Both the position numbers and the translations under genes were made by a program. Source: an uncultured Clostridia bacterium (lineage in GTDB: Bacteria > Bacillota > Clostridia > Oscillospirales > CAG-272). From it: a DNA stretch of 64,000 nt. The stretch covers positions 1,563-65,562 of the forward strand of contig CALWTY010000004.1 in NCBI GenBank assembly GCA_944384585.1. Direction: 5' to 3'. Below are positions 2,416-12,786 of the stretch, in pieces. The number at the start of each line of letters is the position of its first letter. Within the stretch, counting starts at the first letter, position 1. A model generated the notes under the pieces. The model saw nothing but the letters and a program-made list of their open reading frames with translations, searched no databases and was not told the origin of the DNA.

Positions 2416-2444
2416 TTGACTTCATAAATCAAATGTGCTATACT
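2416..2444 (+). promoter_or_regulatory. Sigma-A type promoter of the Dlt-like operon
   Basis: TTGACT-N17-TATACT with extended TG. Confidence 0.7.
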
Positions 2445-2547
2445 GTACCTATTAATTGTAACCGATGTCGGATTCCGCCCGGAAGCAGCGAAACGGGAGG
2501 AGAATCATCATCGGTTCAGCTCGAAACAAGTCAGGTTAGTAATAGAT

Positions 2548-4068
2548 ATGATGCAAAATAGACTGTCACTTAAGAAAATCCTGTTCGGCACGACGCCTGT
2601 CGCGGCGGTGTTTCTTCTGATTATGCTTCATACCCTGGGAAGGGGAACACCGCTCGGTTCAGAGCCCTCCATGACGGAACAGACGGAAATGATCCTGTCC
2701 ATGACAGCGGTCCGCGATGTCAGTATTTTCAGCGGTGCGCCGCTGAACGCCGAGGACTTTTTCGCGGAGGGACGTCCTGACGGAGTGAAGATTTCCTTTG
2801 AGACGATTCCCCCGACCGATCGGGCAGGTCGCTACCCCGTGGTCCTGATCCTGAGCCTCGACGGACAGAGTCAGAAGCGGGAAGCGGTCCTGACGGTGAG
2901 CGAATGTCTTTCGCTGCTTCGTCTCCCCATCGGGAGCGACCGTGTGATCTCGGTGGCTGATTTTGTCGGGAATAATGCGACCGATGCGGAATTTGTAGAC
3001 TTCTATCCCAATTCCTTCTCCCGCTCCGAGCCGGGGCTTTACCGCGGCAAGATCCGCATCGACGGACAGCTCTATGAAATCGCGCTGGAGATTGCAGACC
3101 TGACGCCTCCCACCGGCGATCCCGTGACGGGCGTCACCGTCTTTCTGAATCAGACCGTCGATCCGTCGCTTCTGGTGACAAACCTGTCGGATTACGGAAA
3201 GATTACCGTCGGTTATGCGGAAGAGCCCGATTTTTCCCGCGAAGGGGAGATCCCGGTCTCGGTGCTTCTGACCGACGATAGCGGAAATCGGGCGACCGTG
3301 GATACGGTCGTGACGGTGATCCGCGATACCGAGCCGCCGGTGTTTTCCGGCATATCGGATAAGACCATTACGGTCGGTGACGGCATTTCCTATAAAAAGG
3401 GCGTGACGGTGACCGACAACAGCGGAGAGGTGCCGGATTTCACGGTGGACAGCTCCGCCGTCAATCGCAACAAGCCCGGCGTGTATTCCGTCGTGTATAC
3501 CGCGACCGATTCGTCGGGAAATACGGCCAGGGAAACGATGACCGTCACCGTCGTCAGGGTTTCGACCGAGCAGGTCAATCGGAAGCTGGAGCAGATTGCC
3601 GCAAGGATTATTTCCGACGGCATGACGCGGGACGAAAAGATCCTGGCGGTATGGAAATACACCCGCAAGGCGATCACCTACACCGGACGGTCGGACAAAA
3701 CCGATCTCTATTCCGCTGCCTATGAGGGGCTGGTGACCGGCGGGGGAGACTGCTATACCTACTATGCGCTGAATGCGCTGCTCTTTGATTTTCTCGGAAT
3801 CGAAAACGTCGAGGTCCGGCGCGTCGACGGGCAGTCAAGACACTGGTGGAGTCTTGTGCTGTTCGAGGACGGTCTGTGGTATTTTGTCGATTCCTGCCCG
3901 CTGCCCGCCAAGATGGGACAGCACGCGGGAATGACCGGCAGGATGACCAAAAGCGATCTTGCCTATCTGACCTCGCTGTCCGATCAGATCGCCGGCGAAG
4001 AGGGCGTTTATTCCGGCTACTATGAATACGACACGGCGCTGGACGCGCTCTATGCCGTCGCGCCTTGA
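2548..4068 (+). CDS. Membrane-anchored protein with Ig-like (DUF5011-type) repeats and a C-terminal transglutaminase-like domain
   Basis: N-terminal hydrophobic segment; DTEPPVF..VVYTATDSSGNTA Ig-like unit plus earlier similar units; triad motifs GDCYTYY, RHWWSLV, YFVDSC. Confidence 0.8.
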   Translation: MMQNRLSLKKILFGTTPVAAVFLLIMLHTLGRGTPLGSEPSMTEQTEMILSMTAVRDVSIFSGAPLNAEDFFAEGRPDGVKISFETIPPTDRAGRYPVVLILSLDGQSQKREAVLTVSECLSLLRLPIGSDRVISVADFVGNNATDAEFVDFYPNSFSRSEPGLYRGKIRIDGQLYEIALEIADLTPPTGDPVTGVTVFLNQTVDPSLLVTNLSDYGKITVGYAEEPDFSREGEIPVSVLLTDDSGNRATVDTVVTVIRDTEPPVFSGISDKTITVGDGISYKKGVTVTDNSGEVPDFTVDSSAVNRNKPGVYSVVYTATDSSGNTARETMTVTVVRVSTEQVNRKLEQIAARIISDGMTRDEKILAVWKYTRKAITYTGRSDKTDLYSAAYEGLVTGGGDCYTYYALNALLFDFLGIENVEVRRVDGQSRHWWSLVLFEDGLWYFVDSCPLPAKMGQHAGMTGRMTKSDLAYLTSLSDQIAGEEGVYSGYYEYDTALDALYAVAP

Positions 4069-4116
4069 CCTTTCCCGATTTCCCGAAGACCGGCTTCCGT
4101 CCGGCATGAGGTTGAT

Positions 4117-5661
4117 ATGACGAATGTTCTTGAGTACCTTGAAAACGCGGTCCGCCTGACCCCCGATAAGATCTGCTATCTGGACGACGACTGCCGGATG
4201 ACCTTCCGCCGTGTGGCGGAGGAGGCGCGGGCGATCGGAAGCCTGCTTGCCCGCCGCGGCGTGTGCCGGAGGCCGGTCGCCGTCTTTATGAAAAAAGGCC
4301 CGCGCGCCGTCACCGCGTTCCTCGGCGCACTTTACGGGGGCTGCTTCTATGTTCCGCTCGACATTGAAATGCCGATGTTCCGGATCGAGCTGATTCTCGG
4401 GCTGCTCGGAGATTGCCCGATCCTCTGCGACGACGCTTCCCTCCCCGTGCTGAAAAAGCTCGGAAGGGAGGAGGACGCGGTCCTCTATGAGACCGCCGCG
4501 GCGGAGGAGACGGACGAGGAGGCGCTTGATGAGGTGAGACGGCACGGAATCGATACCGATCCCGTATATGTGCTGTTCACCTCCGGCTCGACCGGTATTC
4601 CCAAGGGAGTCATCACCTCGCATCGCGCCCTGATCGACTATGTCGATCACCTGTCGCAGATCCTGCGGGTCGATTCCGAATCGGTCTTCGGAAATCAGAC
4701 CCCGCTCTATACCGACGCCTGTCTCAAGGATCTCTATCCCACGCTGAAATGCGGCGCGACGACGGTTTTTATTCCGAAATCCCTCTTTTCCTTTCCGGTC
4801 AGGCTTCTGGAGTATCTCAATCGCCATCGGATCAATACCGTTTGCTGGGTCGCCTCGGCGCTCTCGATCGTTTCCTCGCTCGGCGCTCTTGATTCGGTGA
4901 AGCCCCGTGAGCTTCGCACCGTCGCCTTCGGCTCGGAGGTCTTTCCCGTGCGGCAGCTCCTGCTTTGGCAGAAGGCTCTTCCCGAGGCGCGGTTCATCAA
5001 TCTCTACGGCCCGACGGAATGCACTGGCTGCTGTTGCTTCTATGAGCTTGACCGCCCCTTTGAGACGGAGGAGGTCATTCCCATCGGCAAGCCCTTTCCG
5101 AACGCCGGCGTCTTTCTCCTTTCGGAGGAGGATCGCCCCGTCCCGCAGGGAGAGCTCGGCGAGATCTGCATCAAAGGAACGGGCCTTGCCTACGGCTATT
5201 ATAAGAATCCTCAGAGAACGGCGGAGGTCTTCGTTCAGAATCCTCTCAACGACGCCTACCCGGAGCGCATCTATCGGACGGGAGACCTCGGTCGCTTCAA
5301 CGAGCGGGGAGAGCTGATCTATGTGACCCGCAAGGATTTTCAGATCAAGCATATGGGGTATCGGATCGAACTGGGAGAGATCGAGGTGGTTTGCGCCGCC
5401 TGCGAGGGCGTATCGCTCTGCTGCGCGGTCTATGATCGTGAGAAAAAGCGCATCCTCCTCTACTATACCGGCGAAACGGAAAAAGGAACGCTGCTCGGTT
5501 ATCTCAAGGGAAAGCTGCCGCGGTATATGCTGCCGGCAGAGCTGATCCGGCTGCGCCAAATGCCGCTGACGCTCAATCGGAAGATCGACAGGAAGCGGCT
5601 GGAAACGGAGGGCGCGCCGGAGGAAGCGGCGGAGGAGAGCCGCCGACTGATTTCAGACTGA
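4117..5661 (+). CDS. Stand-alone amino-acid adenylation enzyme (DltA-like)
   Basis: LFTSGSTGIPKG, NLYGPTE, YRTGDLG, KHMGYRIELGEIE, NRKIDR core motifs. Confidence 0.9.
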   Translation: MTNVLEYLENAVRLTPDKICYLDDDCRMTFRRVAEEARAIGSLLARRGVCRRPVAVFMKKGPRAVTAFLGALYGGCFYVPLDIEMPMFRIELILGLLGDCPILCDDASLPVLKKLGREEDAVLYETAAAEETDEEALDEVRRHGIDTDPVYVLFTSGSTGIPKGVITSHRALIDYVDHLSQILRVDSESVFGNQTPLYTDACLKDLYPTLKCGATTVFIPKSLFSFPVRLLEYLNRHRINTVCWVASALSIVSSLGALDSVKPRELRTVAFGSEVFPVRQLLLWQKALPEARFINLYGPTECTGCCCFYELDRPFETEEVIPIGKPFPNAGVFLLSEEDRPVPQGELGEICIKGTGLAYGYYKNPQRTAEVFVQNPLNDAYPERIYRTGDLGRFNERGELIYVTRKDFQIKHMGYRIELGEIEVVCAACEGVSLCCAVYDREKKRILLYYTGETEKGTLLGYLKGKLPRYMLPAELIRLRQMPLTLNRKIDRKRLETEGAPEEAAEESRRLISD

Positions 5662-5693
5662 TACCGCGGCTGCGGGGAAGGGAATATAACAAT

Positions 5694-5921
5694 ATGGATA
5701 AGATCATTTCGATGCTCAGGGAGCTTCATCCCGATATCGACTTCGAGACGGCGGAGGCGCTGGTGGACGACGGGATTCTCGATTCGATGGATATCGTATC
5801 ACTGGTGACGGCGATTTACGACGAGTTTGACGTGCGGATCCCCGCCGACAGAATTCTGCCGGAGAATTTCAATTCCGCCGCGGCGCTCGGAAAACTGGTC
5901 AATGAACTGATCGACGAATGA
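5694..5921 (+). CDS. Acyl/aminoacyl carrier protein (DltC-like)
   Basis: 75 aa, acidic; GILDSMDIV phosphopantetheine site. Confidence 0.9.
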   Translation: MDKIISMLRELHPDIDFETAEALVDDGILDSMDIVSLVTAIYDEFDVRIPADRILPENFNSAAALGKLVNELIDE

Positions 5922-7510
5922 GCTTTACCTCCTTTTCGTTTGCGCTGTTTTTTCTCGTCCTTACGCTGCTCTACTATACCGTGGCCGGGAAAAAGCAGTG
6001 GCAGCTTTTGCTGATTGCCGGCTATTTCTTTTATGCCTGCGCCGATCCCCGCTATCTGATCTTCATTCTGGTCACGACTGCCTCCGCATATCTTGTCACG
6101 ATGCGCTTTACGGCGCTCCGACGGGAGCTTGGACGATGGTTTGACGAGCATCCCGAACTGACCCGCGAGGAGAGAAAGAGATACAAGGAAAAAACGGCGT
6201 CCCGCTGTCGGAAATGGCTGCTGCTTGCCGTTTTGCTGAACTTCGGGATTCTGTTCACCTTCAAATACCTGAACTTTTTCCTTGTCAATCTCGATTCGCT
6301 GTTCGGCCTTTTCGGAGGGGGACTGCCGGTCACATCGGTCAGGCTGCTGCTTCCGCTGGGACTTTCGTTTTATATTTTTCAAACGATCGGCTATGTGGCG
6401 GATATTTATTTCGGAAAATACGAAGCCGAACGGAATCCCTTTCGGCTGGCTTTGTTTGTCTCCTTCTTTCCCCAGCTTCTGCAAGGGCCGATCGGGCGCT
6501 ATAATCTGATGGCGCCCACCCTCTTTGCTTCTCATGCCTATGATTCCAAAGCCGTGCGCTTCGGACTTCAGCGGATGCTTTGGGGGTATTTCAAGAAAAT
6601 CGTGATCGCTGACCGACTGATCAAGCCGGTCTCGACGATCGGCGGCGCTCCCGAGGAATACGGCGGCGTCTTTGTGCTGCTTGGGATGCTGCTCTATGCG
6701 GCGCAGCTCTACTGCGACTTTACCGGAGGGATCGATATCACCATCGGCTCAGCGGAGGTGCTGGGCGTCCGGTTGAGCGAGAACTTCAATCGCCCCTTCT
6801 TCTCCAAGAGCGTTGCGGAGTATTGGCGTCGCTGGCATATTACCCTCGGCACCTGGTTCAAGGATTATACCTTCTATCCCCTGTCGACGAGCAAAGCGAT
6901 GATGAAGCTTTCGAAATGGACCAAGGGCAGATTCGGCCCTGCCGTCGCGCGGCGCGTCCCCGTCTATCTCTCCACCGTGATCCTGTGGCTTGCGACCGGC
7001 GCGTGGCACGGCGCGAAATGGAACTTTATCGTCTGGGGACTCGGAAACTGTCTTGTCATCCTGATTTCACAGGAGCTGACGCCCCTATACCGCCGCTTTT
7101 ACGAGCGCTTTCCGAAGCTGCATCGCTCCCGCTTCTGGGACGGAGTGCAGGTGCTTCGCACCAACGGCATCATGTGCCTGCTTCGCACCCTTGACTGCTA
7201 CGCTTCCCCCGGGGCGGCGTTCTTTGCGATCGGAACGATCTTTACCCGCATGAACGGCGGCGCGCTGACGACGGATGCGCTGCTTGAGCTTGGACTGAAG
7301 CCGGCGGATATTGCGGTGACGGCGGTCGGGGTGCTGATCGTCTTTGCCGTCAGCATGGCGGGACGGAGCGGATCGGTCAGAGAAAAGCTCGCCCGGCTTC
7401 CCGCAGGCGTCCGGGTCCTGCTTTTCGGCGCGCTGTTCTTCTCGATTCTGGTGTTCGGCGCTTACGGCATCGGATACGACGCGGGACAGTTTATCTATAC
7501 GCAGTTTTAA
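5918..7510 (+). CDS. MBOAT family O-acyltransferase (DltB/AlgI-like) with C-terminal DltX-like motif
   Basis: LPLGLSFYIFQ, SFFPQLLQGPI, EYWRRWHITLGTWF, TGAWHG (catalytic His); ends in FIYTQF. Confidence 0.92.
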   Translation: MSFTSFSFALFFLVLTLLYYTVAGKKQWQLLLIAGYFFYACADPRYLIFILVTTASAYLVTMRFTALRRELGRWFDEHPELTREERKRYKEKTASRCRKWLLLAVLLNFGILFTFKYLNFFLVNLDSLFGLFGGGLPVTSVRLLLPLGLSFYIFQTIGYVADIYFGKYEAERNPFRLALFVSFFPQLLQGPIGRYNLMAPTLFASHAYDSKAVRFGLQRMLWGYFKKIVIADRLIKPVSTIGGAPEEYGGVFVLLGMLLYAAQLYCDFTGGIDITIGSAEVLGVRLSENFNRPFFSKSVAEYWRRWHITLGTWFKDYTFYPLSTSKAMMKLSKWTKGRFGPAVARRVPVYLSTVILWLATGAWHGAKWNFIVWGLGNCLVILISQELTPLYRRFYERFPKLHRSRFWDGVQVLRTNGIMCLLRTLDCYASPGAAFFAIGTIFTRMNGGALTTDALLELGLKPADIAVTAVGVLIVFAVSMAGRSGSVREKLARLPAGVRVLLFGALFFSILVFGAYGIGYDAGQFIYTQF

Positions 7511-7522
7511 GGCGGTGGCGAA

Positions 7523-8590
7523 ATGAAAAAACGGCTTGCGGCTGTTGCGGTCTGCCTGTCGGCGGTGCTGATCTTCTTCGCATTGCAGGCGCTGCTCACG
7601 CCGAAATACATCACCGAGGCGCAGGAGGGCAATCTCCTTGCGGAATATTACGATTCCGGGAAAAATCACGACGTGATCTTTATCGGGGATTGCGAGGTCT
7701 ATGAAAACATCGACCCGGTTGTGCTGTGGAGAGAATACGGAATTTCCTCCTATGTCAGAGGCTCGCCCCAGCAGCTGATCTGGATGTCCTATTATCTCAT
7801 GGAGGAGACCCTGCGGTACGAGAAGCCCGATGTCTTCGTCTTCAACGTGCTGGCAATGAAATACGGGGAGCCTCAGAGCGAGGCCTATAACCGGCTGGCG
7901 CATGACGGAATGAGACTGTCAGGGAGCAAGCTGCGCTCCGTCCGGGCATCGATGACCGAGGAGGAGAGCTTCCTCTCCTATCTTTTTCCGCTCCTACGCT
8001 ATCATTCCCGCTGGTCGGAGCTGGATAAGAACGATCTGAAATATTGGTTCAAACCCGCCCCTCAGATTTCCTGTGCCGGCTATCTGATGCGGGTGGATAC
8101 CAAAGGGATCGATTTCATCCCGCCGGGACAGGAGCTGCCCGACTATCGGTTTTCCGGGCTCTGCTATGAATATCTCGATAAAATGACGGCGCTCTGCCGC
8201 GAAAACGGGATCGAGCTTGTGCTGATCAAGGCGCCCTCCCTCAGCCCCTATTGGTATGATCAGTGGGATGAGCAGATCGAGGAATATGCCGAGAAAAACG
8301 ACCTTTTGTATTACAACTTCCTTGAAATGTCGGAGCAGACCGGCATTGATTATATGACCGATACCTACGACGCGGGCCTTCATCTGAATCTCGCGGGGGC
8401 GGAGAAGCTCACCCGCCTGATGGGGGAGCTTTTGATGCGGGAATACGATCTGACCGATCACCGCGGCGACGCGGCGTATCGGGAGGAATGGGATCGGATC
8501 GCGGCGTTCCACGACAGGGTCAAGGCGCATCAGGAGAAAGAGCTTGCCGAGAATGGCTACTTGTCGGGCTTTACCTATTTTGAAGATTGA
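7523..8590 (+). CDS. SGNH-like / DltD-like extracytoplasmic acyltransferase
   Basis: N-terminal signal anchor; block I VIFIGDCEVY; block V YDAGLHLNLAGA. Confidence 0.75.
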   Translation: MKKRLAAVAVCLSAVLIFFALQALLTPKYITEAQEGNLLAEYYDSGKNHDVIFIGDCEVYENIDPVVLWREYGISSYVRGSPQQLIWMSYYLMEETLRYEKPDVFVFNVLAMKYGEPQSEAYNRLAHDGMRLSGSKLRSVRASMTEEESFLSYLFPLLRYHSRWSELDKNDLKYWFKPAPQISCAGYLMRVDTKGIDFIPPGQELPDYRFSGLCYEYLDKMTALCRENGIELVLIKAPSLSPYWYDQWDEQIEEYAEKNDLLYYNFLEMSEQTGIDYMTDTYDAGLHLNLAGAEKLTRLMGELLMREYDLTDHRGDAAYREEWDRIAAFHDRVKAHQEKELAENGYLSGFTYFED

Positions 8591-8604
8591 GAAAGGATGG
8601 AATC

Positions 8605-9162
8605 ATGAAAAAACGGATTTGTGTATGGCTGTCTGCGCTTTTGCTGACAGCGTTGCTTGCCGGCTGCGGAGAGCCCTCCGGCGAGAGAGAGGAGAGCGGG
8701 TCTGCGGGGGATCAGACGACGGCATCCGTCACGGCTTCTGCCCCGGCGTCGGAAAAGAAGGGCTATCTCTTCCGGTTTGACGGCAAGGATGTATACTGCA
8801 ATCAGGACGGCGAGGAGGCGCTCTCGATTCTCGGAGAATTCGAACATAAGCTGGAATCTCCCTCCTGTGCCTTTGACGGCGTGGATACCACCTATTATTA
8901 CGCTTCGGTGCAGCTGATCACCTACACCGACGGATCGTCTCCTTCGAAGGTGCTGTCGATCTATCTGCAGGATGATACCGTCGAAACGGCGGAAGGAATC
9001 TCAGTGGGAGACAGCAAGGAGGACGTGGAGGCCGCCTACGGCGAGCCGGCAGAGCGGGGGGAGAACAGTCTGATTTTCGAAAAGGACGGAATGAGGCTGA
9101 CCTTTGTCTTCAACGAGGACGGCGTTTCGTCGGTTCTCTATTCTCTGATCACGGAGGAATAA
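8605..9162 (+). CDS. Lipoprotein of unknown function
   Basis: ATG 8605 after GAAAGGA; MKKR + hydrophobic stretch + lipobox LAGC (Cys21); Ser/Thr/Ala linker; GISVGDSKEDVEAAYGEP domain. Confidence 0.8.
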   Translation: MKKRICVWLSALLLTALLAGCGEPSGEREESGSAGDQTTASVTASAPASEKKGYLFRFDGKDVYCNQDGEEALSILGEFEHKLESPSCAFDGVDTTYYYASVQLITYTDGSSPSKVLSIYLQDDTVETAEGISVGDSKEDVEAAYGEPAERGENSLIFEKDGMRLTFVFNEDGVSSVLYSLITEE

Positions 9163-9167
9163 GGTTG

Positions 9168-9199
9168 CCGCCGTCACCCGAACGGGTGACGGCGGTTTT
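9168..9199 (+). terminator. Rho-independent terminator of the Dlt-like operon
   Basis: CCGCCGTCACCC-GAAC-GGGTGACGGCGG-TTTT. Confidence 0.8.
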
Positions 9200-9273
9200 A
9201 TCGATGGCGGGAAGCGGGGATCGGCGGGCGGGAAGGCATCAGGGCATCGGGGCTGTAAGCCTGTCTGCGTCCC

Positions 9274-9376
9274 GCCGCCCGTTCGGAAGCAATCTCTACG
9301 ACGTTTTGCCGCCGGTCGGAAGCAAATCCTTACGACGTTCCGCCGCCCGGCCGGAAGCAAATCCTTACGACGTTTC
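9274..9376. repeat. Three tandem copies of a 34-35-bp unit
   Basis: GCCGCC..CGGAAGCAA(A)TC(C)TTACGACGTT units start at 9274, 9308 and 9342 with no spacers. Confidence 0.85.
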
Positions 9377-10213
9377 GCCTCCTCCGCCGGTTGAGGACTT
9401 ACCCGCCCTTGCTTCAACGGGTGTCAGCCCGAAGGCCTTTCGGTATACCTTGGAGAAATATCCCGCGTCGCGGAAGCCGCAGTCGAAGGCAATGCTTTTG
9501 ACGGGGCGGTTTGTCCCGGTTATCAGCTTCTCCGCCTCCGCAAGGCGCAGCTCGTTCAGCTTATCGGACACCGAACAGCCGTATTTCTTTTTGAAGGAGG
9601 AGAGGAGGTGTGTACGGCTGCAGAGAAACTCCCCGCATAGCCGTTCCAGCGTAATTCTCTCGCGATAATGCTCCGACAGATACGACAAAACCGTCTCCGG
9701 CAGATCGCGGGTTTTCGGTCGGAGAATGTTTGACAGCGTGATATAGCCGGCGAAGACCGACATGATGTTGGCATAGGTGCGAAGCATCGGCTCCCCCACC
9801 CGCGGAATCTGCCCGACGGCGGCGGAGAGGGAGCTGTCGGATTGCCCGAGAAGAACGGATGCCGCCTCAAGCGCCGCATGAAGCTCGGCCTCGGTCTCCC
9901 CCAGCACCTGCCCCATCATCAGATAGCCGATCGGTACGTCATAGCGGCAGATCGGGCAGACCGCCTCCCACAGCCCGAAAGGGCATCGGTAGACGACAAG
10001 CCCCCGCTCCCGATCGGCGGCGCGGAAGGCCGCGTCATCGCTCATGCGGCAGCGCTCCTCCGCCTCCGCCGAGGCGTGAAGAAGACGGCAGAACCGGAGA
10101 GGCTCCTCCGGGCAGGAGGCAAGCTCCTTTCCGTCGCGGTCGTGGATCGAGATTCTGAAGCCGGTGGCGCGGTGCAGCTCCCGCAGCAGCGAGGAGAGAT
10201 CCGGTTGCTTCAT
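9365..10213 (-). CDS. AraC family regulator with N-terminal PocR-type sensor domain
   Basis: FCRLLH, YRCPFGLWEAVCPI (PocR); C-terminal double HTH ..IAFDCGFRDAGYFSKVYRKAFGLTP. Confidence 0.9.
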   Translation of the reverse strand: MKQPDLSSLLRELHRATGFRISIHDRDGKELASCPEEPLRFCRLLHASAEAEERCRMSDDAAFRAADRERGLVVYRCPFGLWEAVCPICRYDVPIGYLMMGQVLGETEAELHAALEAASVLLGQSDSSLSAAVGQIPRVGEPMLRTYANIMSVFAGYITLSNILRPKTRDLPETVLSYLSEHYRERITLERLCGEFLCSRTHLLSSFKKKYGCSVSDKLNELRLAEAEKLITGTNRPVKSIAFDCGFRDAGYFSKVYRKAFGLTPVEARAGKSSTGGGGETS

Positions 10214-10259
10214 GGCAGTCCTCCTGTCGGATTATCATTTGTGTACGATTTTACTATAC

Positions 10260-10304
10260 ATTATACTATTTTTTATTGAAATGTCAAGCGCGTCGGTGTA
10301 TAAT
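10260..10304. promoter_or_regulatory. Overlapping divergent sigma-A promoters
   Basis: Plus strand TTGAAA(10276)-N17-TATAAT(10299); minus strand TTGACA(10287)-N16-TATAAT. Confidence 0.65.
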
Positions 10305-10379
10305 GATAGCGTCAGAACAAGAGAAGAGGTCCGCCACCCGACCGAGGGACCGGCGGTCCCGAAAGGATTGGTGAGCAAT

Positions 10380-11204
10380 ATGGCAAAGGCAACGCTGGTG
10401 GTAATGGCCGCCGGGATGGGAAGCCGCTTCGGCGGCCTGAAGCAGCTTGAGCCTGTCGGGTTGAACGGCGAGGTGCTGCTGGACTATTCTGTCTACGATG
10501 CAAGGCGCGCAGGCTTTGACAAGGTCGTTTTCATCATCAAGGAGAGCATTGAAAAGGAGTTCCGCGCGCTGGCGGGAGACCGCATCTCCGCCAATATCGA
10601 GACGGAGTATGTGTTCCAGCAGATTCCCGCGCATCGGAAGAAGCCCTACGGGACGGGAGAGGCGATCCTTTGCGCGGCGGATGCCGTGGATTCCCCGTTT
10701 TCCGTGATCAACGCCGATGATTTCTACGGCGAGGACGCCTTCCGCAGGATTCGGAGGGGGCTTGAGGATCGCCGGGATTACTGCATGGTGGGATATCGTC
10801 TTGAGAATACCCTTTCCGACAACGGCGCGGTCTCGCGAGGGGTCTGTGAGATCGAAAACGGATTTCTGACCGATATCAAGGAGCATACGGCGCTGACGAG
10901 GGAGTCCGGGCTTCCCGCATCGACCGTCGTTTCGATGAATATGTGGGGGCTTCAGCCCGACATCTTCCCGGAGCTGAAGAAGCAGTTTTCGGAATTCCTT
11001 GAGACCGCCGACATCACAAAAGACGAATTTCAGATCCCGAAGGTGATCGCCCGCGTCATTGAGAGCGGTATGCATCGGGTTCGGGTCTACAACACCGACG
11101 AGGTCTGGTACGGCATGACCTATCGGGAGGATAAGGAGAAGGTCGCGGAGGCTGTCAGACGGATGACCGCGGAGGGGCGATATCCCGAGGAGCTGTGGCG
11201 ATGA
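10380..11204 (+). CDS. Sugar-phosphate nucleotidyltransferase (MurU/GlmU-like GT-A fold)
   Basis: VMAAGMGSRFGGLKQ, PYGTG, VINADDFYG; start placed at ATG 10380. Confidence 0.88.
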   Translation: MAKATLVVMAAGMGSRFGGLKQLEPVGLNGEVLLDYSVYDARRAGFDKVVFIIKESIEKEFRALAGDRISANIETEYVFQQIPAHRKKPYGTGEAILCAADAVDSPFSVINADDFYGEDAFRRIRRGLEDRRDYCMVGYRLENTLSDNGAVSRGVCEIENGFLTDIKEHTALTRESGLPASTVVSMNMWGLQPDIFPELKKQFSEFLETADITKDEFQIPKVIARVIESGMHRVRVYNTDEVWYGMTYREDKEKVAEAVRRMTAEGRYPEELWR

Positions 11205-12301
11205 AAGAGATGGAAGCGATCTGCCGGCTTTTTGCCTTTGAGGGCAGACTGATCCACGCAGAGCCCTACGGATGCGGCCATATCAACGATACCTACTGCC
11301 TGTGGTTCGATCGGGGCGGCCGTCCGCCGAGGCGTTATATTCTGCAGCGCATCAATACCGATATCTTCCGTGACGTCGACGGTCTGATGCGGAATATTGC
11401 AGCTGTGACCGAGCATATCCGCGCCGGCCTGAGAGCGGAGGGGCGGGACGACAGCCGCGGGACGCTGACGGTGATCCCGACGGTCGACGGCGGGCTGTAT
11501 GCCCGCACCGATGACGGCTGCTATCGTGCGTATGTCTTTCTGGAAAATACCGTCTCCCTCCAGACAGTCGAAAACCGCGACCGGTTTGCCGCACTCGGCA
11601 GAGCCTTCGGGCGGTTTCAGAAGCAGCTTGCGGATTTTGACGCTTCCTCGCTGGTTGAGACGATTCCCGACTTTCATAATACCGTCCGGCGCTGTATCGC
11701 CCTTGAGGCGGCGGTGAAGCGGGATGCGGTGGGGCGCGCCGCCTCGGTTGCGGCGGAAATCGCATTTGCCGATGCCAAAAAGGGGGAGGCAGGGGTTCTG
11801 ATCGAAGGAGCGGAGCGGGGAGAGCTTCCCGTTCGGGTCACGCATAACGACACCAAGCTCAACAACGTGCTGTTTGACATCGACAGCGGGGAGACGGCGG
11901 TGATCGATCTGGATACCGTGATGCCGGGGCTGGTGCTTTATGATTTCGGAGACAGCATCCGCTTCGGTGCAAGCACCGCCGCCGAGGATGAAAAGGACCT
12001 CAGTCGGGTCGGGATGGATCTGACGCTCTTCGAGGCGTATGCCGAGGGCTTTCTTGAGACCTGCGGCGATATGCTGACAAGCGCGGAGCGGGAGCTTCTC
12101 CCGTTTTCCGCCCGTCTGATGACCTATGAATGCGGCGTGCGCTTTTTGACAGATTACCTGGAGGGCGACGTCTATTTCAAAACCCACTATCCCGGGCAGA
12201 ATCTTGATCGCTGCCGCACGCAGTTCAGGCTCGTTGCCGATATGGAAGGAAAGCAGGAGCAGATGCGGCGGATCATCAATCGCATTACGGCGCGCCTTTG
12301 A
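11201..12301 (+). CDS. N-acetylhexosamine 1-kinase / AmgK-like phosphotransferase (APH fold)
   Basis: GHINDTY, YILQRIN, THNDTKLNNVLF, VIDLDTVMPG, YDFGDSIR; ATGA overlap with the upstream gene. Confidence 0.85.
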   Translation: MKEMEAICRLFAFEGRLIHAEPYGCGHINDTYCLWFDRGGRPPRRYILQRINTDIFRDVDGLMRNIAAVTEHIRAGLRAEGRDDSRGTLTVIPTVDGGLYARTDDGCYRAYVFLENTVSLQTVENRDRFAALGRAFGRFQKQLADFDASSLVETIPDFHNTVRRCIALEAAVKRDAVGRAASVAAEIAFADAKKGEAGVLIEGAERGELPVRVTHNDTKLNNVLFDIDSGETAVIDLDTVMPGLVLYDFGDSIRFGASTAAEDEKDLSRVGMDLTLFEAYAEGFLETCGDMLTSAERELLPFSARLMTYECGVRFLTDYLEGDVYFKTHYPGQNLDRCRTQFRLVADMEGKQEQMRRIINRITARL

Positions 12302-12318
12302 AGCGCGGGAGCGGGGAA

Positions 12319-12786
12319 ATGGGAATGTATCGGTACGAAAGAAAGGTTCAGTATCACGAAACCGACAAGATGGGGATCACCCATCACGCCAACTATGTCA
12401 AATGGATGGAGGAGGCGCGGGTGGCCTATCTGGAAGCGGTCGGCCTTCCCTTTGAGAAAATCGAGGCGGAGGGGATCGTCTCTCCCGTCGTGCGGCTGAC
12501 GATCGATTACAAGCTCCCCTCCACCTTCGGGGATACCGTGACGGTTCTGGTGAGCGTGGAGCGGTATAACGGCTTCCTCTTTGAAATCTCCTACCGGATG
12601 ATCGGGCGTGACGGGGAGGAAACGATCGCGGAGGCGCACTCTTCGCATTGCTTCATGAAAAACGGCAGGATCGTATCCCTCAAGCGATCCGATCCGTCGA
12701 TGCATGAGCTTCTGGAAAACGCCTTTTCCGGCGATCGGAGAGAGGAGCGGGACGGGGCTTCGGCGGAAGAGAAGCCGGGCACATAA
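12319..12786 (+). CDS. Acyl-CoA thioesterase (YbgC/4HBT hot-dog family)
   Basis: YHETDKMGITHHANYVKWMEEAR. Confidence 0.9.
   Translation: MGMYRYERKVQYHETDKMGITHHANYVKWMEEARVAYLEAVGLPFEKIEAEGIVSPVVRLTIDYKLPSTFGDTVTVLVSVERYNGFLFEISYRMIGRDGEETIAEAHSSHCFMKNGRIVSLKRSDPSMHELLENAFSGDRREERDGASAEEKPGT

Follow-up and report, generated by a model that had tools for sequence, protein, structure and literature searches.

Organization of the locus

The 64,000-nucleotide stretch of DNA analyzed here (the window, from whose first letter positions are counted) comes from an uncultured Clostridia bacterium; the sequence originates from chicken-gut metagenomes, and the genome to which it belongs is 95% complete at 2.3 Mb. 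Six open reading frames (ORFs) on the forward strand, g1 through g6, are packed into positions 2548–9162. They encode a stalked transglutaminase-like protein, a stand-alone amino-acid adenylation enzyme, a carrier protein, an MBOAT acyltransferase, an SGNH-fold protein and a small lipoprotein. Judged by its sequence, this cassette is not a dlt operon. It is very probably a carrier-fed MBOAT-SGNH pathway of envelope acylation distinct from Dlt, and it can be read, with somewhat less assurance, as a self-contained unit whose Dlt-like relay would deliver an acidic D-amino acid (D-aspartate being the likeliest) to Cys-based enzymes at the cell surface. The principal features are as follows.

2548–4068, forward: g1, membrane-anchored extracytoplasmic protein, 506 amino acids (aa); N-terminal transmembrane (TM) helix; Ig-like (PF16403) and Transglut_core (PF01841) domains above cut-off
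3751–3753, 3841–3843 and 3889–3891, forward: g1 triad Cys402, His432 and Asp448, invariant in 61/61 orthologues
4117–5661, forward: g2, stand-alone amino-acid adenylation enzyme, 514 aa; AMP-binding; TIGR01733 at 330.5 bits (cut-off 317.4)
4726–4728, forward: g2 Lys204, Stachelhaus position 239
5694–5921, forward: g3, carrier protein, 75 aa; PF00550 at 22.2 bits (cut-off 20.8)
5784–5786, forward: g3 phosphopantetheine-attachment Ser31 in L-D-S-M-D; Ser invariant in 65/65
5918–7510, forward: g4, MBOAT, 530 aa; PF03062
6836–6838, forward: g4 His307, invariant in 68/68
7007–7009, forward: g4 His364, invariant in 68/68
7490–7507, forward: g4 C-terminal F-I-Y-T-Q-F, with Tyr527 at 7496–7498; F-I-Y-x-x-F invariant in 68/68
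7523–8590, forward: g5, SGNH-fold protein with a membrane anchor, occupying the place of DltD, 355 aa; weak GDSL_2 sequence match only, SGNH fold assigned with AlphaFold2 (AF2) and Foldseek
7691–7693, forward: g5 block I G-D-C-E, with Cys57 where Ser is expected; GDCE in 81/81 orthologues
Within g5: block V, D283-x-G-x-H287-L-N; D283, H287 and N289 invariant in 81/81
8605–9162, forward: g6, small lipoprotein; likelier start ATG 8605 behind AAGGA, alternative TTG 8587; lipobox LLAGC
8665–8667, forward: g6 lipobox Cys, kept in 60/65 orthologues
8866–8868, forward: g6 second Cys (Cys94) in S-C-A-F-x-G, near-invariant (63/65)

From g1 to g6 the intergenic distances are 48, 32, −4, 12 and 14 nucleotides, where the last distance assumes the ATG start at 8605 (with the TTG at 8587, g5 and g6 would overlap by 4); the negative value reflects the overlap of the g3 stop with the g4 start. 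Because no gap exceeds 48 nucleotides, a separate dltX ORF cannot fit between the genes.

Adenylation enzyme and carrier protein

The g2 product is an adenylation domain of the nonribosomal peptide synthetase (NRPS) type: it passes the TIGR01733 cut-off and has the anchor residues Asp235 and Lys517 (conserved as D200 and K489). Models of canonical DltA fall well below their cut-offs on g2 (TIGR01734, 255.4 bits against 559.85; NF003417, 256.6 bits against 476), as do DltC models on g3 (NF003464, 30.3 bits against 68; TIGR01688, 20.4 bits against 52.35). The specificity pocket was located by anchoring on motifs A4, A5 and A10 and checked by alignment with three canonical DltA proteins (L097–L099), two of which lie above the equivalog cut-off and the third (L099, 547.6 bits) slightly below it. 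In this alignment the DltA Cys and Val landed on the positions known as Cys269 and Val301. The resulting g2 code is DAKSAGLGCK. The canonical DltA codes are DLLSLCTVAK, DLMSLCTVCK and DLTSVVGVAK, that is, DL[LMT]S[LV][CV][TG]V[AC]K, and 6 of the 10 pocket positions of g2 differ from them, including the equivalents of Cys269 and Val301; the initial annotation of this DNA, made from its letters, had already judged the pocket unlike that of dlt. Among 64 g2 orthologues, the code reads D-A-[K/R]-[S/P]-A-[G/V]-L-G-x-K, with position 239 occupied by Lys in 59 and Arg in 5, and it is identical whether or not a racemase gene (see below) is linked to the cassette. Retention of Asp235 implies that an alpha-amino substrate is bound, and the invariant basic residue at position 239 implies an acidic side chain.

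MBOAT protein with a fused shuttle motif

The DltB model TIGR04091 scores 133.6 bits on g4 (cut-off 375). Alignment of g4 to the DltB structure 6bug spans the catalytic region, with the WHG motif conserved and both His residues kept; g4 is about 110 residues longer than DltB and has two additional C-terminal TM helices. The FxYxxF motif is an acyl-Tyr shuttle, which is borne on the DltX microprotein in Dlt and fused to the C-terminus in acyl-CoA-fed MBOATs, e.g., PatA (PMC12148441). g4 has the features of a PatA-type MBOAT, namely the invariant catalytic His and, borne at the C-terminus by two additional TM helices, the fused FxYxxF. MBOAT-SGNH pathways other than Dlt are said to have no carrier protein (PMC12148441). 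In the cassette, the fused motif co-occurs with adjoining and co-conserved adenylation-domain and carrier genes, and we infer that g4 is fed by the carrier protein g3.

The same genome encodes another MBOAT on contig C83 (1296–4460, reverse strand), a 470-aa protein ending in FLYFNF that is accompanied by a 570-aa GDSL_2 protein with a Pro-rich linker and by no carrier. This pair probably carries out acetyl-CoA-fed O-acetylation of a polymer.

SGNH-fold protein with a cysteine nucleophile

In the AF2 model of g5 (pLDDT 85.5), an SGNH fold comes after a TM helix. Foldseek matched it to SGNH hydrolases (E 3e-5) and to the DltD structures 6o93 and 6pfx (E 3–5e-4, TM-score about 0.4), while a sequence search of the PDB with g5 gave no match, so that only the fold search was informative here. 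Many g5 homologues carry the precomputed Pfam assignment PF27429. The DltD family itself, PF04914, matched neither g5 nor any other protein of the 95%-complete genome, and genome-wide profile searches likewise returned no DltA or DltB above cut-off; canonical DltA was also missing from four other cassette-bearing genomes, including the complete one of Anaerocolumna. The wider g5 family comprises 6685 clusters at E <= 1e-3, of which 123 representatives were compared. At the Cys57 column, 93 of them have Ser and 30 have Cys, and the latter take in every full-length representative of at least 260 bits (about 42% identity or more) that covers the column. A nucleophile different from that of dlt had been part of the initial annotation, and the constancy of Cys among the cassette orthologues against the prevailing Ser of the wider family agrees with it.

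A second, paralogous carrier-fed cluster is found on the chromosome of Anaerocolumna sp. AGMB13025 (2650000–2668000, locus L100), at about 5147–10762 of that locus on the reverse strand. It encodes an adenylation domain with the code DVKSLSLCNK, a pyridoxal phosphate (PLP)-dependent enzyme of the ornithine/diaminopimelate-decarboxylase/alanine-racemase fold, a carrier, an MBOAT whose last residues are LIYAGF and a partner of 321 aa with GDSE, i.e., Ser; neither a transglutaminase-like protein nor a lipoprotein is present. Because this GDSE-bearing cluster is without both accessory proteins, the Cys variant travels with g1 and g6. The cluster also suggests that Dlt-like systems may form a modular family with differing cargo-supply enzymes.

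External proteins

The PF01841 match of g1 reaches 29.1 bits (cut-off 23), and its C-terminal domain is, on sequence grounds, a transglutaminase-like (papain-fold) core with an intact triad and a predicted enzyme. In the AF2 model (pLDDT 86.7), a TM anchor is followed by a series of Ig/Rib-like beta domains and the C-terminal alpha/beta core. Stalk matches (Rib, cadherin, SraP) dominate the Foldseek result for full-length g1, which does not inform the catalytic domain, and residues 338–506 found nothing meaningful among PDB sequences. No informative match to g6 was present in the family libraries. Both proteins are conserved members of the cassette and set it apart from dlt, in keeping with the two accessory genes of the initial annotation. 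The TM anchors and the lipobox predict that g1, g5 and g6 lie outside the membrane. Because each of the three carries a conserved Cys, thioester hand-offs among them are suggested, possibly ending in transfer to an amine.

Distribution and synteny

The cassette is common and occurs in hundreds of species of the gut and rumen. In a collection with one genome per species, the g5 profile confirmed a relative at at least 596 of the 600 pattern matches listed. Eighty loci from different species were retrieved for a survey of synteny, and gene order (g1-g2-g3-g4-g5-g6) and strand are kept in 53; the remainder are mostly cut contigs, with a few permuted. Such recurrence exceeds what chance would give. 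Loss of synteny in relatives had been named beforehand as an outcome that would speak against an operon of this kind, and synteny was found to be kept. Since the flanks differ between species, the cassette is a self-contained unit. Its frequency was estimated in an even sample of the class (the class sample; 399 genomes, 217 genera), in which presence was scored by a cassette-type g5: 42 genomes (about 10%) and 18 genera are carriers, many of them from gut and rumen. Carriers include Oscillospiraceae, Lachnospiraceae, Caldicoprobacterales, Anaerocolumna, Anaerotaenia and Roseburia. Arrival of the cassette in the present genome by horizontal transfer was considered; its absence from all 13 other same-order genomes of the class sample favors such an event, whereas the GC profile runs through the region without a break.

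The closest relative of the cassette (locus L038; 77, 71 and 75% identity for g5, g2 and g4, respectively) is likewise without a racemase gene, and lies on a contig labelled 'Selenomonadaceae bacterium'. This label is odd against the Clostridia-wide spread of the cassette, and either a binning or label error or horizontal transfer would account for it.

Public annotation gives the products generic names: 'amino acid adenylation domain-containing protein', 'acyl carrier protein', 'MBOAT family O-acyltransferase', 'hypothetical protein' and 'transglutaminase domain-containing protein'. No description of the cassette was found in the full-text literature searched, much of the subscription literature not being searchable.

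Linked racemase and candidate cargo

In most relatives, g1 and g2 are separated by about 900 bp that encode a PLP-independent racemase of the aspartate family (PF01177; TIGR00035 at 177–218 bits). Counted over 59 loci, this gene (asp_race, TIGR00035) lies between g1 and g2 in 42 and at another place of the locus in a further 3 (45/59 in total). The nearest solved relative of the cassette racemase is the aspartate racemase of Pyrococcus horikoshii (1jfl, E 9e-37). Association also extends to whole genomes, as 30 of the 42 cassette-bearing genomes of the class sample have asp_race, compared with 74 of the 357 others (odds ratio 9.6, p = 7e-11). The present genome contains an unlinked asp_race homologue on contig C14 (23045–23818), which is 39–47% identical to the cassette-linked enzymes and keeps both catalytic Cys motifs, as well as a separate MurI; because MurI is present, supply of D-glutamate would need no extra racemase. 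The possibility that the C14 racemase belongs to a D-aspartate ligase locus was rejected, its neighbors being a GH43 gene and a YetF-like gene. No ATP-grasp gene stands beside the cassette or beside the C14 racemase.

In the complete Anaerocolumna genome (L071, 4418–5077), the in-cassette racemase starts about 20 residues late and is without the N-terminal GGLGP motif of other loci; it may be truncated or have an unusual start.

The initial annotation had proposed export of an aminoacyl group other than that of dlt, and the in-cassette racemase of aspartate type, together with the invariant basic residue at position 239, strengthens this proposal. On the same sequence features the cargo is probably an acidic D-amino acid. 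D-aspartate would be the likeliest, given the pocket and the aspartate-type racemase, with D-glutamate already supplied by MurI; its specific assignment is tentative, at slightly short of an even chance. D-glutamate, D-cysteate or an L-acid are possible cargoes.

Transcription signals and flanking genes

Three signals bound or precede the coding region.

2416–2444, forward: sigma-70-type promoter-like site, TTGACT-17-TG-n-TATACT, 10/12 matches plus TG extension; consensus match only
2457–2518, forward: hairpin in the 5' leader (leader about 100 nucleotides), −25.4 kcal/mol, z = −1.8; significance doubtful
9166–9199, forward: intrinsic terminator, perfect 13-bp GC-rich stem, 4-nucleotide loop and UUUUAU; −29.3 kcal/mol, z = −5.7

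The initial description of six tightly packed genes with a promoter and a terminator was thus borne out, with a promoter-like consensus match and a hairpin that none of 200 shuffled sequences equals in folding. By itself the promoter-like site is weak evidence, because the whole region holds four such sites against 2.9 expected by chance. The leader hairpin was dropped as a meaningful element, its z-score not being significant, and the leader matched no Rfam family. A small number of contigs from chicken-gut metatranscriptomes fall on g1 and g2 and bridge the g3/g4 and g4/g5 junctions; their support for co-transcription is weak because carry-over of DNA is possible.

The neighbors on either side have no relation to the cassette; upstream they are a PadR regulator and a gene without known identity, downstream a convergent PocR/AraC regulator gene. 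Between the terminator and the 3' end of the latter, at 9273–9379, a 35-bp unit, CGCCGCCCGGTCGGAAGCAAATCCTTACGACGTTT, is repeated in tandem (3.1 copies); its 23-mer core occurs nowhere else in the window. Further downstream, the DNA at 10164–12786 (forward) encodes a nucleotidyltransferase (PF00483), an APH-type kinase (PF01636) and a 4HBT thioesterase, which could form a small activation module. This gene set does not adjoin the cassette in Anaerocolumna.

Proposed pathway and alternative readings

The features above can be assembled into a relay, whose transfer order, cargo (in identity and chirality) and acceptor we infer. A PLP-independent racemase of the aspartate family, in this genome the unlinked C14 enzyme, would generate an acidic amino acid in its D configuration, D-aspartate being the likeliest. 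The g2 enzyme would then activate the amino acid and load it onto g3 as a thioester. At the cytoplasmic face, g4 would take the aminoacyl group from the carrier and pass it through a His-containing funnel to its own Tyr527, the FIYTQF motif replacing a separate DltX microprotein. Cys57 of g5 is proposed to attack the acyl-Tyr and form a thioester, where DltD forms an oxyester. From there the group would move to an extracytoplasmic acceptor, with g6 (through its Cys94) and the stalked g1 (through Cys-His-Asp) acting at the last stage.

The acceptor could be of teichoic type, because the genome contains six LtaS-like genes (sulfatase domain, frames of about 700 aa; contigs C37, C16, C1, C46, C43 and C29) and one weak TagF-like match on C29 that adjoins an LtaS-like gene. 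A more elaborate ending, which is doubtful, is a thiol relay whose product is an amide and not an ester. It would lead from the Tyr ester to Cys57, possibly to Cys94 of g6, then to the triad of g1, which its Ig-like stalk would hold out into the wall, and finally to an amine; the diamino acid of peptidoglycan stem peptides (through its epsilon-amino group) or a surface-protein Lys would be examples. If true, this would be a post-export, ATP-independent N-aminoacylation of the wall with D-aspartate. It would also provide the first case of an SGNH enzyme that operates by way of a thioester and the first of an MBOAT with its shuttle fused being fed by a carrier.

Several observations weigh against the relay of D-aspartate as drawn here. 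The operon of the window itself is without a racemase gene, its g1-g2 gap measuring 48 nucleotides, and asp_race is entirely missing from 12 of the 42 class-sample genomes that carry the cassette, so that supply of D-aspartate by a racemase is common but not universal. Racemases of four cassette loci (L013, L059, L026 and L067) and the C14 homologue pass the NCBIfam model of cysteate racemase, CuyB, at 195–201 bits (cut-off 190); this narrow passage means that automatic annotation may call them cysteate racemases in spite of an entirely different context. Lys at position 239 is classically Glu-type, as in the SrfA-A1 code DAKDLGVVDK, and known L-Asp codes carry Lys at position 278 instead. The roles of g1 and g6 are proposed solely from co-conservation and conserved Cys residues, and expression evidence is thin, the RNA contigs being too few to delimit a transcription unit.

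Some of these points would suit a rather unlikely reading, in which the machinery is the same but the cargo is not D-aspartate; it could be glutamate in its L- or D-form, D-cysteate, or some other amino acid that is acidic or polar. Lys239 together with a small, open pocket is reminiscent of codes of the Glu type, and the cassette genomes without asp_race point in the same direction. So does the CuyB match, which exceeds its cut-off by a few bits, CuyB being part of the PLP-independent Asp-racemase family (PMC11193023). The affinity of the racemase to a solved aspartate racemase argues otherwise, and in 4 of the 5 full-length racemases scanned (four cassette-linked and the C14 homologue) TIGR00035 outscores CuyB. 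A dedicated extra racemase speaks against D-glutamate, which MurI already supplies, and the neighborhood offers no context of sulfonate metabolism for cysteate. The acceptor, too, might be something other than a wall polymer, namely a lipid or glycolipid of the membrane, or else a small molecule that is secreted, as in an aminoacyl-lipid or natural-product pathway. The best scores of g2 are to NRPS adenylation domains, and MBOATs of other kingdoms acylate lipids. Such an acceptor is improbable nonetheless, as the 53 conserved loci contain no condensation, thioesterase or other tailoring genes, a stalked external enzyme and a lipoprotein suggest a target at the level of the wall, and an FxYxxF MBOAT with a membrane-anchored SGNH partner is the architecture described for acylation of envelope polymers (PMC12148441).

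The least probable reading is a very divergent yet functionally ordinary Dlt system, in which g2 activates D-alanine and (lipo)teichoic acid becomes D-alanylated. In its favor, canonical dlt genes are missing from the genome, yet teichoic-type acceptors are probable in view of the LtaS-like genes and the weak TagF-like match; DltA 3e7w is among the good PDB matches of g2 (184 bits), and orthologous MBOATs are named 'DltB' in IMG. Set against this are the divergent pocket with its invariant Lys or Arg at 239, a linked racemase that is of aspartate type and not an alanine racemase, the Cys nucleophile, the fused DltX motif, the two extra conserved genes, and scores well under the cut-offs for all Dlt models. 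Relay of an acidic D-amino acid, most likely D-aspartate, is preferred.

Dlt-type D-alanylation governs surface charge, resistance to cationic peptides and host signaling in Gram-positive bacteria. If the cargo of the cassette is an acidic D-amino acid, many gut Clostridia bear an unrecognized surface modification, which could influence charge, sensitivity to phages and antimicrobial peptides, and immune recognition. The cassette crosses the division between carrier-fed and carrier-less systems (PMC12148441), in that it combines donor supply through a carrier with an MBOAT of PatA type whose shuttle is fused; it also has Cys where the catalytic Ser would stand, and adds an aspartate-type racemase and two further surface proteins that bear Cys.

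Comparison with known systems

The cassette shares with Dlt a stand-alone adenylation enzyme and small carrier, an MBOAT with the conserved His residues, a Tyr within FxYxxF, and a membrane-anchored SGNH protein. Unlike in Dlt, the pocket of the adenylation enzyme is not of D-Ala type and the linked racemase is of aspartate type; the MBOAT itself carries the Tyr motif as a fusion, on two additional TM helices, where Dlt relies on a separate DltX; the SGNH nucleophile is Cys, not Ser, in a protein outside the DltD Pfam family; and two conserved extracytoplasmic genes are added, for a stalked transglutaminase-like enzyme and a Cys-bearing lipoprotein. Every Dlt equivalog model, moreover, stays below its cut-off on the cassette proteins.

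Recruitment of a DltA-like ligase and a DltC-like carrier for an amino acid other than D-alanine is exemplified by AlmEFG of Vibrio cholerae, which places glycine or diglycine on lipid A. AlmG is an LpxL-type acyltransferase at the cytoplasmic face and not part of an MBOAT-SGNH relay, and AlmEFG is not known to involve a racemase or thiol enzymes. A dedicated aspartate racemase is found in Lactococcus and Enterococcus faecium, where RacD and the ATP-grasp D-aspartate ligase Asl provide the D-Asp cross-bridge of peptidoglycan. The RacD/Asl route is cytoplasmic and acts on UDP-MurNAc-pentapeptide, whereas the cassette would export an activated amino acid.

The cassette, PatA/PatB of peptidoglycan O-acetylation, AlgI/AlgJ/AlgX and the C83 pair all have an MBOAT whose C-terminus includes a fused FxYxxF and, as a protein of its own, an SGNH partner. 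The acyl-CoA-fed MBOAT-SGNH pairs use acetyl-CoA and have no adenylation enzyme or carrier (PMC12148441). The SGNH partners in PatA/PatB-type pairs use Ser where g5 uses Cys, and those systems include no racemase, transglutaminase-like protein or Cys-lipoprotein. Relative to the logic of Dlt and other MBOAT-SGNH systems, what is new in the cassette would thus be its cargo, the fused shuttle, the Cys nucleophile and the two added enzymes.

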